58,063 bases of DNA from positions 1-58,063 of IMG/VR virus record IMGVR_UViG_3300013094_000055, one strand, 5' to 3'. The translations under genes were made by a program, and so were the position numbers. Within the stretch, counting starts at the first letter, position 1, and each line of letters starts with the position of its first letter. Of the stretch, positions 21,957 to 56,470 are shown piece by piece. The notes under the pieces were generated by a model. The model had not been told where the DNA came from. It did no database searches and saw nothing but the letters and a program-made list of their open reading frames with translations. Origin of the DNA: a virus. Lineage: Duplodnaviria > Caudoviricetes.

Positions 21957-22667
21957 TTAGCTAATTGCGTAGTTAGTGCGGCCTCCGCCAGCTGATCCCA
22001 CTTGACCTGTTGTAGAACCGGTTGTGCTTGATCCTGCCTTAAGAGGTTTGCCATTAGCGTCAGTGAATGAAACGCTGAGACCTTCATGAACTAGCTGCAT
22101 TGTTTCAAACATCAATGCTCCGTTAGTAGCATCTAGGTCTGAGTAGCTTAGGCTTGTGATCCATGCGTTATACACGTTGAAGACCATCTGAGGGTAGTCA
22201 TTAGCTACATCTGTATTTGGATGGTTGTTAACGTAGATAGCGATGTTTACACGGAAGCCGGAGCCTGTAGACCCTGAACCTCCCGGATTAAGTCCTGTTC
22301 CAGCTGACGCTGCAAATAAACCGCGCATCCATGAAATAGCTTGATCGTTACCGAAGATTGTTCCACGGGTGAACGTAATTGGTTGGAAGGTGGTCATTCC
22401 AGGAATCTGGTGGACAGTGGTGTTGAATCCACCTTCACGGTAGGTGATGTTCTGTGTCTGGATAGCCAGACCAGAGATAGTTGAGAAACCGCCAACCCAT
22501 CCAGTTGAGATGCCCTTTACAGGCATAGATGTCTGGTTTGTAGCGCTCTTGATGCGTTGATCAAAAAACCCATCATTACCAGCTGATGTGAAGACTGCCT
22601 TGAACCTAAACGTGCGTAAAGGATCTGTGGCCAGACTTGAGTTGTAGGTACTTAGGTTAGTTGCCAT
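21957..22667 (-). CDS. Tail tube protein (T4 gp19-like)
   Basis: DPLRTFRF, GFSTISGL, YREGG, PITFTRG, NAW, ETMQLVHEG. Confidence 0.92.
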   Translation of the reverse strand: MATNLSTYNSSLATDPLRTFRFKAVFTSAGNDGFFDQRIKSATNQTSMPVKGISTGWVGGFSTISGLAIQTQNITYREGGFNTTVHQIPGMTTFQPITFTRGTIFGNDQAISWMRGLFAASAGTGLNPGGSGSTGSGFRVNIAIYVNNHPNTDVANDYPQMVFNVYNAWITSLSYSDLDATNGALMFETMQLVHEGLSVSFTDANGKPLKAGSSTTGSTTGQVGSAGGGRTNYAIS

Positions 22668-34170: not shown

Positions 34171-34205
34171 TATCTCCTTCGTAAGAGTGTAAGTATACCT
34201 GAATA

Positions 34206-35105
34206 TTAAGTTAGAACAGTGATTATTGCGTAACCGGCTCCAGAGTTTACCCCAGTTTCTCCGCCGTACGCCGTGATGTAGTTAGAGTTTATATAGCCAG
34301 AGCCTCCGCCAGCCCCGCCATTTCCACGGCCGTCAATGCCAGAAGCTCCGCCTCCTCCACCCCCAAACCAACCACCGCCACCACCCGGGCCTGTGTAGTT
34401 GTACTGAGAATAGGCGCCGCTATCGTTTCCTCCAGTACCACCTTGACCAGCGGAGCCGTTACCTGCGTTTCCACTACCTCCAGAACCTGGATAGCCTCCG
34501 GTACCCCCAGCAGAGTCTGTGCCAGGGCCGCCAAAACCGCCGTAGCCTGACATAGCACCAGGTGTTCCTGGAGAGACAATATTGGTGCCTGAATAGCTGT
34601 TATTTAGAAAAGCGGCTAAGAACCCGCCTCCTCCACCATCTCCTCCCGGAGATCCAGCTGTAATAGCGACGTTCTTTGTTCCTGAGCCGCCGCCACCGCC
34701 AGCAATTAGAATCACATTACCAAAGGAAGTTCCACCGACGCGTACGTCAGTCATTCCTCCTCCTCCTGCGCCCACCTTGTTTTGACCTGAGTTTAATCCT
34801 CCGTTACCTCCACCATTCCAACCAGCTGTTGCTGTGTTGCTTTGGTTTTGGTTTCCTCCTTGACCTCCGCAAGAGATGTACAGAGTAGTGCCGTGTGAAA
34901 CTGAATAAGTTCCATAGGTATACCCGCCGTAGCCAGGGGTTTCTGAAGTCACGCCTCCAGCAGCGCCCCACAACTCAATCTTCATAGTGTTGATGTTCGA
35001 GGTTACAAATGTTACTTGTGAACCTGTGTAGTTAAATCTAATTGTATCGCCCTTGCTATAGCTGCCCGGAACCGTAGGGAATGTATACGCCGTCATATTG
35101 CCCAC
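34206..35105 (-). CDS. Glycine-rich (polyglycine-II bundle) adhesin-like protein
   Basis: ELWGAAGG, GWNGGG, GGGGMTDVR, LIAGGGGG, GGGGGWFGGG. Confidence 0.75.
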   Translation of the reverse strand: MGNMTAYTFPTVPGSYSKGDTIRFNYTGSQVTFVTSNINTMKIELWGAAGGVTSETPGYGGYTYGTYSVSHGTTLYISCGGQGGNQNQSNTATAGWNGGGNGGLNSGQNKVGAGGGGMTDVRVGGTSFGNVILIAGGGGGSGTKNVAITAGSPGGDGGGGGFLAAFLNNSYSGTNIVSPGTPGAMSGYGGFGGPGTDSAGGTGGYPGSGGSGNAGNGSAGQGGTGGNDSGAYSQYNYTGPGGGGGWFGGGGGGASGIDGRGNGGAGGGSGYINSNYITAYGGETGVNSGAGYAIITVLT

Positions 35106-35908
35106 CTTACAATAACTATTCCAGAACCGCCTGTGTTAGTACCGCTTCCACCACCGCCACCGTTTCCAGTATTAGCGTTTCCTCCAGTGGCTGAACTTGA
35201 AGTGTAAGACCCATAGCCTTTTCCTTGAGTGCCTTTAGCACCACCAGAAGCTTGGCCGCTTCCTCCATCTTGTCCTCCGCCACCAGCGCCCATCATAATT
35301 CCGTAAATATATTTTCCTAAACCACCTGAACCAGCAAAGTAGTTTCCTTGAAAACTGTTTCCTGGGTGACCTGCTTCGTTAAACCCGCCACCGCCAGAAC
35401 CTCCACCATAACTGTAACCATCATATCCGTAACCGCCGTTGTTGCCCTGACCGCTTGTTCCAGTTCCCTGTGAACCAACTACAGAGCTACCATAGTTACT
35501 TCCACCACCAGAGCCACCATTTGAAGCGCCCTGTGAAGCCCCGCCTCCCGCTCCACCGCCAACAGCGGTAAAGAGAGAGCCAAAAGAAGAGTTGCTTCCC
35601 GAAACACCGTTTCCTGAACCGCCTGCACCAACTGTGACTGCGTAAGAACCTTGGGTTAAGTTGTAAGAGTTTTGTACGATGACTCCACCGCCTCCACCAC
35701 CACCCCCGCTAGAGCTCCCTCCTGCTCCACCGCCAGCTACAACAACGATGTCTGTAGTACCGCCCACGGATACGTTAAAAGAACCATTGCCAGTAAAGAC
35801 AGCATATGCGTGGTCACCATAACGTGTAATTGAATACGAACCTGTAGCGGTAGCCGTAAACTTAGTGGGTATTACAAACCCCAACACAGAGTGGGATACG
35901 GCACTCAT
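35093..35908 (-). CDS. Glycine-rich fibre-tip protein
   Basis: VVVAGGGAGG, VTVGAGG, GSGIVIVR signature. Confidence 0.75.
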   Translation of the reverse strand: MSAVSHSVLGFVIPTKFTATATGSYSITRYGDHAYAVFTGNGSFNVSVGGTTDIVVVAGGGAGGSSSGGGGGGGGVIVQNSYNLTQGSYAVTVGAGGSGNGVSGSNSSFGSLFTAVGGGAGGGASQGASNGGSGGGSNYGSSVVGSQGTGTSGQGNNGGYGYDGYSYGGGSGGGGFNEAGHPGNSFQGNYFAGSGGLGKYIYGIMMGAGGGGQDGGSGQASGGAKGTQGKGYGSYTSSSATGGNANTGNGGGGGSGTNTGGSGIVIVRWAI

Positions 35909-51900: not shown

Positions 51901-53622
51901 TTATTTTTCGTAGTCTTCCGGCACCCTCCTCTGTGGGAGTTTTGTACCGTAAGCATTAGTTACCAGCTTCGTACGGAGGCCTTGCTCTCCGAGTTGAGCT
52001 GCGATTGTCGCATCGTCCATAACTATTGGAGACGATGGGGTATTAGGGATCTGTTCACCATTAGGGCCAGATGAAGTCATAGGTTGAGCAGATCCACCTT
52101 CACCGCCAGGTATAGCGCCAGTAATGGCTGCAATATCCTGATCGATCTGTGTTTGTATAAGCTTGAGTGCGCCATCAGCAATGGCATCGTCTTGAAGCTC
52201 TTGACGTATTTCTGTGAGCTTCTCTGCTGGGAATTCCTCACCAAGAGTACGAAGTGCGCCTTCCTTAGACTCAAGCCCAAGAGATAGCTTTGACTGGATC
52301 TCGTTGAGCGCGATCAGGCGGTCAAGAGGCAGAGGCTGTGGAAAGTGAATGTAAGACTGATAAGTGATTGGGTCATTAAAGTCTAGTTGTGCAAGCTGAC
52401 CTTCTTTAAGAGGTACGGTGCTTGCATTTGGATCCCAAGTGAACTTCTCTGGCTCTTTAAGGGCAAGGTTCAAAAGGATAAGCTCATTAACGCGTTGTAG
52501 CCCGTGCGCATATTGAATAATCTTCTGGTGGTAGCGGTTCATCAAAGGCTGGAACTGGATGCTAAGAGCTACGCCAGATGTGTTGGATACAGGTTGTGCC
52601 TGTCCTAGCGCGGTCTCAGGAACACCAACCATTTCGTGCATGGACTTCTTTAGAAGCGCCATGAACTCCATAGCACCCTTTAGGCCTTGTGCTCCACCTT
52701 CGAGGTTTTCCACTTTAGCATCTTTAGGCAAACCGCCCCATACTTTGTTTGCGCCTTTTTCGAGCTGAGACGCTTTGGCGCCAATGATGACTGTAACCGG
52801 AGCAGCATGGTAATTAACAATGTCGGCAATGTCAGTAGCAGTTTCGTTATAAGCCCGGTTAATGTTAATAATATCGTTGCAATCAGATAGACCCCAAGGA
52901 GAACCAGAGATACGCACGTTAGGTATATGTATAACAGGGATAACGCCAAGCGGATTAGGGCGCGAGTCAATAAGTTCGTCATTGATGTATTCCTCGATTA
53001 CGTCGTCTGTCAAGATTTCCGTATAAGTGAATACTTGACGTGTTCCTTCTAGTGATGTGCCCCAGAAACGGTACTTTAGCTTAAACCGAATTAGGCGCTC
53101 ACGATCGTGTGGGTGAAACTCTGGGAATGCAAAAGACGAGTTCAGGGGAAGAATACGAACTCGTCCTGGGTGTTCACGTCCAGCTGGGTCTCTATAAGGT
53201 TCTTCATAAGCAACCTTAATAAAGCAGTCTCCAGATACTGAGCCCTGTTGACCAATTTCCCAAAGTACTGTCGCTTTGTTGTTATCTACTTCCCAGACTC
53301 TTTCAAGAAGGTCAGGGACAATTGCTTCTGTTTCTTTAGGGCTACGGAAGTTAACACCCTTACCGAATGTGAAGTTAATGATGAAATCTGTAAAAGCGCG
53401 GTAATAGTTAAGTGCCATTTGGGTCTCGCCTGTTTGACGGCGATAAGACCAGTGGTGGCCCAGATACATAGCCCAGTTAAGGCTATAACGGTTTAGTCGT
53501 GGACCGTGTACTTCAAACTCTTCATCCGCTAGTTCTACTAATCCCAGCGGGGAGATGGAGATGGTTAGATCGGAAGACGCTGCACGATAACTCGGAGGCG
53601 AGAAATCAATAGAGCTCACCAA
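51901..53622 (-). CDS. Portal protein (SPP1 gp6-like)
   Basis: NPLGVIPVIHIPN, WGLSD, SGVAL; between terminase and scaffold. Confidence 0.9.
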   Translation of the reverse strand: MVSSIDFSPPSYRAASSDLTISISPLGLVELADEEFEVHGPRLNRYSLNWAMYLGHHWSYRRQTGETQMALNYYRAFTDFIINFTFGKGVNFRSPKETEAIVPDLLERVWEVDNNKATVLWEIGQQGSVSGDCFIKVAYEEPYRDPAGREHPGRVRILPLNSSFAFPEFHPHDRERLIRFKLKYRFWGTSLEGTRQVFTYTEILTDDVIEEYINDELIDSRPNPLGVIPVIHIPNVRISGSPWGLSDCNDIININRAYNETATDIADIVNYHAAPVTVIIGAKASQLEKGANKVWGGLPKDAKVENLEGGAQGLKGAMEFMALLKKSMHEMVGVPETALGQAQPVSNTSGVALSIQFQPLMNRYHQKIIQYAHGLQRVNELILLNLALKEPEKFTWDPNASTVPLKEGQLAQLDFNDPITYQSYIHFPQPLPLDRLIALNEIQSKLSLGLESKEGALRTLGEEFPAEKLTEIRQELQDDAIADGALKLIQTQIDQDIAAITGAIPGGEGGSAQPMTSSGPNGEQIPNTPSSPIVMDDATIAAQLGEQGLRTKLVTNAYGTKLPQRRVPEDYEK

Positions 53623-53688
53623 TCACCTCTTTCCCTGTAGTTGTATAAGGGTACTGCTAAATGTCGATAAATCTTTAAAGCGACACGC

Positions 53689-54008: not shown

Positions 54009-54040
54009 AAAACCCCGCCAATCCCGAAGGACGGCGGGGA
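54009..54040 (-). terminator. Intrinsic terminator
   Basis: CCCCGCC-GTCC-TTCG-GGATT-GGCGGGG then TTTT. Confidence 0.85.
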
Positions 54041-54056: not shown

Positions 54057-54455
54057 TTAGTCCTGGACTACAGCTGCGTTGTGTGGGAACTGATGGGAGC
54101 CATTGCGCATTACTTCTTCAATGCGGTTATCTCCGTGATCAGCAAAACCACCCGCTGCAAACTCAGAAAGATGTGATGGAGCTTCTACCCAAGCAGCAGA
54201 ACCAACGTGAGCACGCTCACGCATTGTCTCTTCTGGAAGCTTCTCAAATACGTTCTGGTTACGGTTTGGACGACCTGCTGCAGGCTCATAGCCCTGCATA
54301 GCGCCCTTTGAGAATTCGTTTGGAACGTCTGTGTCTGTTGCGATTCCCTCTTCAAAACGAAGAGGTCCGCGTTGTCCTGCAGAAGCTGGGGAAACTTTAC
54401 GGTCGTAAACGTTACCTGGACGCTCTGGGAACTTTGGATCTGGTGCAATTGCCAT
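54057..54455 (-). CDS. Hypothetical protein, probably structural
   Basis: Start moved to ATG 54455 (AGGAG); RGPLRFEEGIATDTDVP; has its own promoter and terminator. Confidence 0.7.
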   Translation of the reverse strand: MAIAPDPKFPERPGNVYDRKVSPASAGQRGPLRFEEGIATDTDVPNEFSKGAMQGYEPAAGRPNRNQNVFEKLPEETMRERAHVGSAAWVEAPSHLSEFAAGGFADHGDNRIEEVMRNGSHQFPHNAAVVQD

Positions 54456-54531
54456 TGTATAACTCCTTATAGGTTTGAGGTACCTCATAGAAAAGTGTGC
54501 TACATAAATGCCGTACAGTCAGCGTAAAGTC

Positions 54532-56109
54532 TTAACGGAAAAACGGAGAGCTGCTAACTTCTACAGATGGCATCGTTAAATCCATGGTTAGTGACACAGC
54601 AATAGCTAGGCTGTCTGCAAAGTCATCATGCGCATGAGCTTCGTCTGGAGCTTTAGCTAAGAAGTTAGGGCCAGTAAACTTGGTTTCTAGGTCAGTCATC
54701 TGCTGGTAAAAGCGCTTCCACGTACGAAGACGGCGGGTTTTAGCGTGGGCTGGCCATCCGATCATACGGCGGTCAATTAGGGCTTTTAGGTGCTTCCAAC
54801 GCTTAGACTGCTCAGGTTGGCTACTGCCTAGAGAGTGAACCTCTGACTTTGGTAGAAGGAGCTTTAACCGCTGAGCTACTGCATCACCAACACCATTTGC
54901 GTCAACTCCAACAGCGATAACGTCGTAACTCTGTAAGAAGGTTACGATCTGGAAGTATTGATCTTCCCAGTCATCTCCTTGGATCTCAAGCCAGTTAAGG
55001 ATGCGGTGGTCGTAATAACCAAATTCATCTGGACGATCCCAGTCAACCCAGACCACAGTTACTACGGTTGAGTCAAGTTTACGAGCTGGGTCAATGCCAA
55101 CTACAACTGGAGAGCGGTGCCAAGCTTTTACAATCTCCTGAGAGGTATCGCCCAGCTCATCCATAAGAGTTGATGTAACGAACATACCGCGTTCAAGAAG
55201 CCACTTGCAGTTGTAAGACATCTGGAATTCATCTGAGTCCTCGCCTACACGAAGCATCTCTTTCTTGATGAACTTTCCGTAGTTTTCGTTGTACTTTGCT
55301 ACGTCTCGGTAGTCCCATTGGAAGTGGTTCTGTCGGCTAGTTCTAGCTGTTTGACGCCGCTCATTTAACTTAATTGAACGGTAAAAGTTATTCTTGTGTG
55401 TTGTCGGCGTACCTGTCTTAACCATAGTACCTGAGTAGTAAGCTAACATAGGTGAGATAGATTTAGATACTACAAAGTCATCCGCCTCTTGACACTCGTC
55501 AATAACGATTAGATGGAACGACTTAGATTCGATCTTAGCTCTTGGGTTAGCGGTCATCATCATGAGGCTACTGCCTGAGTTTTTAAGTTTGATCTGTCGT
55601 GTGACTCCCGGCACTTTTCCAAGGCTATCGTCGATCTCAGGGTCACCTAGGATCTCTTGAGCTTTTTCAGAGGTTAGGCGGTTAATTGTTCTACCAAATA
55701 GAGTTTCAACCTGGCCCTCAACTGGAGCAAACATGCCGATCCAAATGCCGTCTTTAAATTGCCCTAGAAGGTCCGGATACATCTTTGCTAGGCGAGGAAG
55801 TAAAACCATCAAAGTAGCTACTGTGTTGGCAATTGTCTCTGACTTACCTGACTGACGAGCCGCGAGAGCGGTAATTTCTTCACCGTCATTAATGATTACA
55901 GACTCGATGATGCGTCTAGCTAGAGGCATTTGATAGGGGTGAAGCTCGTGTCCAACCAGCGCTGTCTGGAATTGGATACAGCGATCTACAAGCTTTTTGA
56001 CAAACTCTTTAGAGAGTTCATCCAGTTCTTCGACCTCTTCTTCTGGAGCAAGGTCTTCAGATTCTTCCGGATAGAACTCGTCGTCTTCTTCGTCTAATAA
56101 TTGATCCAT
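54532..56109 (-). CDS. terL: Terminase large subunit
   Basis: ARQSGKS Walker A, IVIDECQ Walker B, TGTP, VGIDPA, VDANGVG, HDDFADS. Confidence 0.95.
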   Translation of the reverse strand: MDQLLDEEDDEFYPEESEDLAPEEEVEELDELSKEFVKKLVDRCIQFQTALVGHELHPYQMPLARRIIESVIINDGEEITALAARQSGKSETIANTVATLMVLLPRLAKMYPDLLGQFKDGIWIGMFAPVEGQVETLFGRTINRLTSEKAQEILGDPEIDDSLGKVPGVTRQIKLKNSGSSLMMMTANPRAKIESKSFHLIVIDECQEADDFVVSKSISPMLAYYSGTMVKTGTPTTHKNNFYRSIKLNERRQTARTSRQNHFQWDYRDVAKYNENYGKFIKKEMLRVGEDSDEFQMSYNCKWLLERGMFVTSTLMDELGDTSQEIVKAWHRSPVVVGIDPARKLDSTVVTVVWVDWDRPDEFGYYDHRILNWLEIQGDDWEDQYFQIVTFLQSYDVIAVGVDANGVGDAVAQRLKLLLPKSEVHSLGSSQPEQSKRWKHLKALIDRRMIGWPAHAKTRRLRTWKRFYQQMTDLETKFTGPNFLAKAPDEAHAHDDFADSLAIAVSLTMDLTMPSVEVSSSPFFR

Positions 56110-56130
56110 ATACGCCTATTTTAGATTGAA

Positions 56131-56160
56131 ACAAAAAGTCTGGGTTATTAAACCCAGACC
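56131..56160 (-). terminator. Intrinsic terminator
   Basis: GTCTGGGTT-TAAT-AACCCAGAC then TTTTTGT. Confidence 0.9.
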
Positions 56161-56195
56161 CTTTGCTGCCGCCACGGGGGAGAGGAAGAGAGGCA
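56131..56195 (-). ncRNA. Candidate small RNA with CU-rich loop
   Basis: TACACT -10 at 56205-56200, non-coding CU tract, then a terminator. Confidence 0.45.
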
Positions 56196-56227
56196 CCTAA
56201 GTGTAACACAAATGTCGATAAATATAT

Positions 56228-56470
56228 TTATCGGCGTGTCATACGACTGTGCAGCTGATCAATAACTGCGTGCAAGGCCTCGGCTCCATTTAACGCTTCA
56301 TCTAAATAAACTTGCTCACGACTCTTCTGATATAGAGATAGGCAGCGCCCTACGTCGTAAATAGCGTTGTCAATCCACATCTCCAACTCACCTGTTGGAA
56401 TCTTGGCAACTCGAGTAGCGACTTTTTGTGAAAAGGGTTTAATCCAGATCTCTTTAGTTTTGCGGAACAT
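56228..56470 (-). CDS. Hypothetical helical protein
   Basis: 80-aa ORF in operon. Confidence 0.65.
   Translation of the reverse strand: MFRKTKEIWIKPFSQKVATRVAKIPTGELEMWIDNAIYDVGRCLSLYQKSREQVYLDEALNGAEALHAVIDQLHSRMTRR

Follow-up and report, generated by a model that had tools for sequence, protein, structure and literature searches.

What lies between the terminase gene of an uncultured phage and the gene upstream of it, and could this short stretch give rise to an RNA with a role of its own? The question is posed by a 58,063-nt IMG/VR virus record (estimated completeness about 61%), which was analysed as a whole and is called the window in the following. A sequence-only reading had picked out a -10 box, a CU tract, a strong terminator and a further TAAAAT belonging to the gene for the terminase large subunit (TerL), all of which are indeed present on the minus strand directly upstream of TerL (Table 1). 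Together they fill the 118-nt gap between an 80-aa gene and TerL in the order P1 box, tract, hairpin and P2 box, with five bases between the -10 box of P1 and the tract GCCUCUCUUCCUCUCCCCC. A perfect 18-nt palindrome, CGATAAATATATTTATCG (window 56216-56233), surfaced at the upstream edge as a reverse self-match; it overlaps the stop of the 80-aa gene and the TTATCGAC motif, and its form is not kept in relatives.

Table 1. Coordinates of the unit and of the genes discussed, as positions in the window.
Feature	Position	Strand	Remarks
80-aa gene, upstream of the unit	56228..56470	-	function unassigned; stop TAA at 56230-56228
Operator-like motif TTATCGAC	56214..56221	-	TTGTCGACAA palindrome in relatives; centre about 24 nt before the predicted start
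P1, extended -10 TGT TACACT	56200..56208	-	hexamer TACACT at 56205-56200; no recognisable -35
19-nt pyrimidine-only tract GCCUCUCUUCCUCUCCCCC	56176..56194	-	predicted 5' end of the RNA; GUG next
GUG GC GGC junction	56168..56175	-	CCGUG kept; GGC at 56170-56168 closes the tract with the 5' GCC
Intrinsic terminator hairpin	56130..56167	-	17-bp extended hairpin, GC-rich core, U-rich tail to about 56129
P2, -10-like box TAAAAT	56118..56123	-	TAnACT in relatives; 8 nt before the TerL ATG (56109)
TerL (terminase large subunit)	54532..56109	-	PHROG 2 at 1.3e-32; Pfam Terminase_6N + Terminase_6C
Portal gene	51901-53622	-	Pfam/PHROG scans

The window is a phage with contractile-tail genes. All of its sizeable ORFs lie on the minus strand and no tRNA genes were found in it; Pfam and PHROG scans recognised, besides the portal protein and a TerL of the ordinary T4 type (Pfam), a tail sheath, tube and baseplate, a DnaB-like helicase, a primase and an SNF2 helicase. 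Pfam collagen-repeat and glycine-rich domains also occur among the window proteins, not mapped to an ORF, and a region at about 34200-35900 (minus strand) stands out by raised GC (0.51), a strong skew and G-rich glycine-coding repeats. TerL and the portal gene are separated by a 143-aa and a 102-aa gene. In the 143-aa ORF, the second ATG (54455-54488, minus strand) lies behind TAAGGAG and is the probable start, the first ATG as listed being without such a signal. A second terminator-like hairpin, CCCCGCC ... GGCGGGG followed by TTTT (54009-54039, minus strand), sits between the two genes, so that TerL and the 143-aa gene may form a short transcription unit of their own.

The nearest cultured TerL is that of Streptomyces phage BRock (55% identity), and a blastn search with 801 nt gave no DNA-level match among cultured phages. 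Close TerL relatives are also found in three metagenome-assembled genome (MAG) bins labelled Saccharimonadales, Nanopelagicaceae and Armatimonadota (loci L200, L201 and L202); because these labels fall in three phyla, the assignment of phage contigs to hosts by MAG bin is unreliable. An actinobacterial host is our working guess, a frame that rests on the 55% TerL identity to a Streptomyces phage and on one of the three discordant bins. As for habitat, a 1-kb stretch with the unit is contained in whole or in part in 15 lake or freshwater sequencing runs of DNA type, and no RNA runs containing it are listed. The TerL relatives that carry the unit include complete-rated genomes of 98 and 100 kb.

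How widely the unit occurs was followed through TerL. A TerL-based scan of IMG/VR yielded 594 relatives in 599 candidate stretches, the best 80 of which were kept (TerL 86-93% identical at the protein level). The search used a covariance model made from 54 distinct copies of the unit; as these were taken from the same TerL loci, the model's scores measure distribution and not independent detection. In the window the model has one strong match (79.9 bits; the next on the sense strand reaches 8.3 bits), and each of the five whole relatives' records likewise holds one, always upstream of TerL. Within the best 80 of the 594 relatives the unit is present in 79 TerL loci, once in each and at 44.8-84.8 bits, the exception (L011) being a locus with just 123 nt before its TerL match. 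The sequence-only reading had allowed that the stretch might be a mere 3' untranslated region without conservation; what was found is an anatomy conserved across relatives.

Outside this group the unit is lacking in Streptomyces phage BRock and in the two farther relatives that could be assessed, at 78% TerL identity. In relatives lacking it the upstream gene adjoins or overlaps TerL, as does the counterpart of the 80-aa gene in L200 and L201. Since farther relatives have no gap between the upstream gene and TerL, the unit is an insertion that characterises one clade. This history raises the question of whether the inserted piece is merely an insulator cassette devoid of RNA function, in which the upstream operon would stop at the hairpin and transcription of TerL would begin anew at P2, the tract and the P1-like box being kept for regulator binding, promoter-proximal DNA properties or stability of a 3' untranslated region. 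An insertion into a formerly gapless junction would have needed to carry both a terminator and a restart promoter, and the terminator lies 60 nt past the stop of the 80-aa gene and therefore also ends, and serves, the transcript of that gene. A spacer would not be expected to have the tract as its best-conserved part, above the terminator and both promoters, nor does the insulator account fit with the -10-type conservation of P1 or with a natural variant, discussed below, that needs P1 as a promoter. We hold this explanation to be quite unlikely; if it were true, the unit would still be a clean terminator-plus-restart cassette inserted into a formerly continuous operon.

The ranking of the parts by conservation comes from 56 distinct relatives, in which mean identity is 84.5% in the tract segment (GCC..GGCA), 76% in the terminator, 72% in the P2 region and 68% in the P1 region, against 40% at the four-fold degenerate sites of TerL in the same relatives; alignment of such short sequences somewhat inflates the identity figures, and the contrast with the four-fold sites is large. 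The tract varies between 13 and 18 nt in relatives in steps that are not multiples of 3, and peptide coding is therefore ruled out. Altogether, the comparison indicates a non-coding unit under strong purifying selection, which is strongest on the tract.

The unit is new to the databases searched. An exact 27-mer gave 0 matches in IMG/VR, and a degenerate pattern met at least 119 stretches there, in which true units are mixed with chance matches in GC-rich contigs. An Infernal-type search of Rfam 15, suggested by the sequence-only reading, matched no family at gathering level anywhere in the window, and up to E 10 returned two matches at chance level (E 1.3 and 6). Look-alikes in potential hosts were sought among 151 genomes of the order to which the Nanopelagicaceae-labelled bin belongs; 13 of these gave weak matches (at most 29.5 bits), mostly terminators. 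Two such look-alikes, L214 1501-1569 (minus strand) and L216 (genomes G100 and G133; 29.2 and 25.2 bits), lie between convergent genes, immediately behind the stop of a gene for a 181-aa membrane protein; in both, a small hairpin whose loop is CUACUCUCCGUG precedes a CCUGGG...CCCAGG terminator. They may be due to chance, or possibly represent the type of host terminator from which the phage unit derives.

Both ends of the putative RNA gene are marked by signals that relatives keep. The TANNNT box of P1 is present in 53 of 55 distinct relatives, with T, A and T nearly invariant, lies 6-7 nt before GCC in 47 of these 53, and is preceded by TGn in 32. A P2 box could be located in 52 of 54 distinct sequences, and in 51 its distance to the ATG is 6-10 nt; its T, A and T are invariant and its A and C nearly so, and the two misses are cases in which the ATG call was placed directly on the box. 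P1 and P2 thus both carry the predicted -10 hexamer of a housekeeping-sigma promoter. A consensus scan found no -35 hexamer at 16-18 nt for either; instead of a -35, 38 of the 55 distinct relatives have the palindromic core TTGTCGACAA centred near -24 of P1. A Shine-Dalgarno-like triplet precedes the TerL ATG in 47 of 54 sequences, and in five of the 54 there is no AGG, GGA, GAG or GGG between the P2 box and the ATG, the box standing 6 nt from the ATG in three of those five. An RNA reading through from P1 would be untranslatable in these five types, and TerL therefore needs its own start; in our reading, translation there would require an mRNA whose 5' end coincides with or adjoins the AUG, hence a near-leaderless TerL transcript.

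The palindrome upstream of P1 has a counterpart. A TTATCGAC-type motif at 53670-53663, upstream of the portal gene, has the same spacing to a -10, as it does in many relatives. In the window and in two complete relatives the palindrome (TTGTCGACAA / TTATCGAC) stands 8-10 nt before TANNNT, in the window at 53648-53670 and at 56200-56221 (both minus strand). In the complete relative G001 the minus-strand sites are 92429-92450, 95007-95027 and 22626-22648, the last of these being an additional, third site on the coding strand. All three records searched (the window and two complete relatives) have the motif upstream of both the unit and the portal gene. TTRTCGAC with up to one mismatch is not enriched in the window (66 sites, 67.6 expected), and the combination TTRTCGAC-N6-10-TANNNT occurs twice there against twice in a backwards control, 4 against 2 times in G001 and 2 against 0 in G002; only the positions of the motif are telling, not its raw counts. 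These operator-like sites look like a small set of co-regulated promoters with a dimeric regulator. In several relatives, extra ATTTRTC half-sites lie about one helical turn upstream. BRock also has, upstream of TerL (L083 2330-2375), a TGTCAAC followed after 7 nt by TAGAAT, separated from the upstream genes by a reverse-strand gene; the layout resembles the TGTCGAC-N8-TANNNT of P1, and neither pyrimidine tract nor terminator accompanies it.

The 3' end of the RNA would be set by the hairpin. Its core stem, GUCUGGGUU/AACCCAGAC, carries a UAAU loop and is extended beyond the GC-rich part by A-U pairs, since the first bases of the U tract UUUUUGUUU (56137-56129) pair with an upstream A tract. 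In relatives, 95.4% of 698 cells keep the pairing, a value that none of 500 shuffles reached (87.5% in shuffles); 8 of 13 pairs show compensatory changes, sliding the 3' partners lowers pairing to at most 56%, and by RNAalifold 11 of 16 pairs carry such changes. The TTT that follows the stem is conserved, the U tract being weakened to UAGUUUU in a sublineage with tRNA genes. A covarying GC-rich hairpin with a U-rich tract behind it is what an intrinsic terminator is predicted to look like. A simple consensus scan of the window listed neither the P1 promoter nor this terminator, the latter probably because the T run is absorbed into the extended stem.

Compensatory changes of this kind also bear on whether the element works as DNA, namely as a pac signal, a triplex-prone purine/pyrimidine tract or a recombination boundary near the terminase gene. 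The unit does adjoin TerL at a module boundary and contains a near-mirror homopyrimidine run, whose mirror symmetry is not kept in relatives. A DNA site has no need of hairpin pairs preserved by compensation, of strand specificity and promoter-like boxes, or of tRNA genes inserted in the same transcriptional orientation, and we regard it as highly improbable.

Those tRNA genes belong to a natural variant. The sublineage of L054-57, L103, L116 and L144 retains the tract and the hairpin but has a degraded U tract, and a tRNA-Thr(TGT) starts 1-2 nt past the tail of the hairpin; the order is hairpin, tRNA-Thr(TGT), tRNA-Asn(GTT), TAAACT box and TerL (L054 2617-2843). Because there is no room for another promoter, the tRNAs must come from P1 through the hairpin. 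The variant argues, as the best indirect evidence at hand, for P1 as a working promoter of RNA genes and for the RNA itself as the product, and processing of the tRNAs would release the small RNA as a separate molecule in this sublineage.

The variant also shows that transcription does not have to end at the hairpin in every case, and this leaves room for the idea of a cis-acting leader of the late genes. P1 would then be a late promoter, with most of its transcripts ending at the terminator, and regulated read-through, by means of a phage antiterminator or an RNA-borne signal in the tract, would feed TerL and the genes downstream, the short RNA being a by-product. Parallels are known: in lambda, the promoter pR' is closely followed, ahead of the late genes, by the 6S RNA and the terminator tR', Q acts by antitermination and the sRNA StxS derives from this region, and HK022 has its put RNAs. 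The position of the unit directly ahead of packaging and structural genes would suit such a leader, as would the operator-like motif common to P1 and the portal promoter, the need of polymerase from P1 to pass the hairpin in the tRNA sublineage, and the Shine-Dalgarno-like triplet of the 47 sequences, which only a read-through RNA would carry. Set against this are the P2 -10 box, invariant at its key positions, and the five sequence types without a Shine-Dalgarno sequence, in which read-through RNA could not be translated. RNAalifold found no alternative antiterminator pairing in the alignment of relatives, merely about 30 nt precede the terminator, and no antiterminator gene was recognised among the matches listed, in a window that covers about 61% of the genome and most of whose proteins are of unassigned function. 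The unit resembles the lambda region in having a promoter closely followed by a terminator before the late genes, which would give a short terminated RNA that may itself act as an sRNA; the lambda late genes have no promoter of their own and need read-through, whereas a conserved -10 box lies here between the terminator and TerL. With this P2 box, and with lineages lacking a Shine-Dalgarno sequence, a late leader of lambda type, on which late genes depend for read-through, does not appear to describe the unit. A cis-acting role in general seems to us unlikely, if deserving of attention.

If the product is a stand-alone RNA, its exposed part should be the tract. The predicted 68-nt RNA folds at -27.9 kcal/mol, compared with -15.6 +/- 2.6 for shuffles (z -4.8; 0 of 200 shuffles as low), and leaves the tract unpaired. 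Across distinct relatives the tract is about 93% pyrimidine; constant are its start GCCUC (ACCUC in four sequences), the near-exclusive use of C and U, and its end CCGU. Such a stretch is predicted to be the conserved unpaired seed of a base-pairing sRNA, and a promoter and terminator of its own, both predicted from sequence and conserved, flank this non-coding RNA.

The tract had been described as a loop closed by UGCC/GGCA. A closing helix exists, and it has 3 bp (GCC/GGC), not 4: the U before GCC is a C in several relatives while the A stays, and this U probably lies upstream of the transcription start. Most copies have GCC/GGC; 4 of 54 distinct copies, of two sequence types, have ACC/GGU, another 2 of the 54 have GCC/GGU, and in L145 the closing GGC is displaced. 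These pairs were counted by eye and by script, as MAFFT misplaced the 5' GCC in alignments A2 and A3 and GUGGUGGC contains a GGU other than the pairing one. Compensatory change in the 3-bp helix is suggestive but thin.

With which partner might the tract pair? The sequence-only reading had proposed the portal leader, and in the window the duplex is real, at -18.3 kcal/mol the second best of 66 translation-initiation regions (shuffled portal leaders -9.85 +/- 3.2; 1.6% of 500 pair as well). The portal leader pairs about as well with the anti-Shine-Dalgarno tail motif of 16S rRNA (-17.5) and is simply a long Shine-Dalgarno sequence. In relatives the pairing is much weaker on average and does not co-vary: over 38 distinct phage pairs the tract gives -12.66 kcal/mol with its own portal leader and -12.85 with those of other phages, and 80% of permutations are as good. 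Own pairs being no better than mixed ones, an anti-Shine-Dalgarno mechanism aimed at the portal gene is not supported by the comparison and stands as an idea, not a finding.

The GA-rich 5' region of TerL, which codes for an acidic tail, shows at most a weak trend towards an own-pair advantage (own -15.95, mixed -15.63; permutation fraction 0.064), with a mean percentile of 0.17 relative to windows further downstream. In a duplex scan over the whole window the strongest partners were not leaders but G-rich glycine-coding repeats of the 34200-35900 type, duplexes that are probably meaningless, and the pyrimidine word with up to 3 mismatches occurs twice in the window (1.26 expected). As a pairing partner the tract is promiscuous, since nearly every purine run can form a duplex with it; among the phage sequences compared, the portal leader and the TerL 5' region, a conserved or co-varying target was not found.

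That no specific mRNA target emerged could mean that the tract titrates a C/U-binding protein (Rho, S1, a cold-shock or a KH-domain protein) instead of pairing with mRNA. Composition, pyrimidine-only with variable length and order, is indeed kept more than the exact word, which suits a protein site, or a generic partner, more than a single particular mRNA. Composition alone offers no explanation for the exact conservation of the CCGUG and GCC/GGC flanks, and no candidate protein was identified; we consider a protein decoy improbable. Something of a long shot is a phage-made C/U decoy, an abundant and unstructured strand similar to the anti-Shine-Dalgarno end of the ribosome, which would sequester leaders rich in purines or a C/U-binding factor of the host, for instance Rho. 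If it were true, expression would tilt to leaderless phage messages, for example the TerL mRNA from the adjoining promoter.

The packaging-related RNA that had been offered as a second possibility is without support. The pRNA of phi29 measures 120-174 nt, has complementary inter-molecular loops and works with a small ATPase; the two are alike in being phage non-coding RNAs with a link to packaging, and the present unit accompanies a T4-type TerL and not a small ATPase. Its predicted RNA of about 65 nt has a single hairpin, the UAAU loop of which finds nothing to pair with, and lacks phi29-like loops; it was rejected as a packaging RNA of this type.

Of the original proposal of a trans-acting small RNA, then, the conserved anatomy of a stand-alone small-RNA unit holds, and the portal anti-Shine-Dalgarno target does not. 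From the observed anatomy, the single copy, the covarying terminator and the purifying selection strongest on the tract, we infer the firing of P1 and P2, the transcript ends, an action in trans and the kind of partner. From P1, transcription would begin on the G of GCC or beside it (about 56194), and the intrinsic terminator would end it near 56130. The resulting RNA of about 65 nt would consist of an unstructured 5' pyrimidine tract of about 19 nt, loosely closed by the 3-bp GCC/GGC helix, and a long stable 3' hairpin, while P2 would separately transcribe TerL into a leaderless or nearly leaderless mRNA. The working part would be the exposed tract, most likely pairing with a purine-rich partner in a chaperone-free manner, like the loops of the actinobacterial 6C sRNA. 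The unit is probably a small-RNA gene of a widespread clade of roughly 100-kb uncultured freshwater lake phages with contractile-tail genes; that it gives a stand-alone small RNA acting via its exposed pyrimidine tract is the account we tentatively lean towards, at slightly less than an even bet.

We see the value of the unit in its compactness as a candidate from comparative sequence analysis: in about 65 nt and a single copy it unites a promoter, a seed-like tract and a terminator, each with its own selection signature, and the natural variant fused to tRNA genes adds to this. It could offer a tractable entry to the roles of late-expressed phage RNAs in hosts without Hfq, and the covariance model is ready for annotating the genomes of uncultured lake phages.

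Several known systems invite comparison. The unit resembles a phage moron, a self-contained module of promoter, gene and terminator, in being self-contained and inserted between genes that are adjacent in relatives; it differs in that its cargo is an RNA, not a protein gene, and in adding a restart promoter for the downstream gene. RsaE/RoxS of Firmicutes share pyrimidine-rich unpaired sequence with it. These sRNAs have several short C-rich loop motifs that pair with Shine-Dalgarno sequences of conserved metabolic targets, whereas the unit has a single long C/U tract, for which the phage sequences yielded no conserved target. Most of the small RNAs known to be encoded by phages come from enterobacterial prophages.

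Abundant non-coding RNAs of actinophages have been described as well, such as the Pleft RNA of L5, D29 and StarStuff (PMC5712189) and nc_1-3 of Rhodococcus phage WC1 (PMC10986025). As far as these accounts describe them, they are like the unit phage-encoded, promoter-proximal, non-coding and free of an assigned function. They were found by RNA-seq. The L5 RNA is presented as an early transcript of about 500 nt lacking a canonical terminator (PMC5712189). The unit would give an RNA of about 65 nt, ends in a canonical terminator and has been seen as sequence only, and the comparison is not made at the level of sequence. To our knowledge, none of the abundant actinophage RNAs seen by RNA-seq has been given a mechanism.

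In mechanism, the nearest analogue may be the 6C sRNA of Actinobacteria, whose C-rich single strands are reported to pair with purine- or G-rich mRNA sites without Hfq or ProQ (PMC6486639). The unit is not a member of this Rfam family, having no covariance-model match at gathering level or up to E 10, and as 6C is described there the two differ in layout: the C-rich runs of 6C lie in the loops of stable stem-loops and the gene is chromosomal, whereas the phage-borne unit has one 5' C/U tract with a 3-bp closure. What they have in common is a short RNA with an exposed C-rich strand and, if our working guess holds, the phylum of the host.
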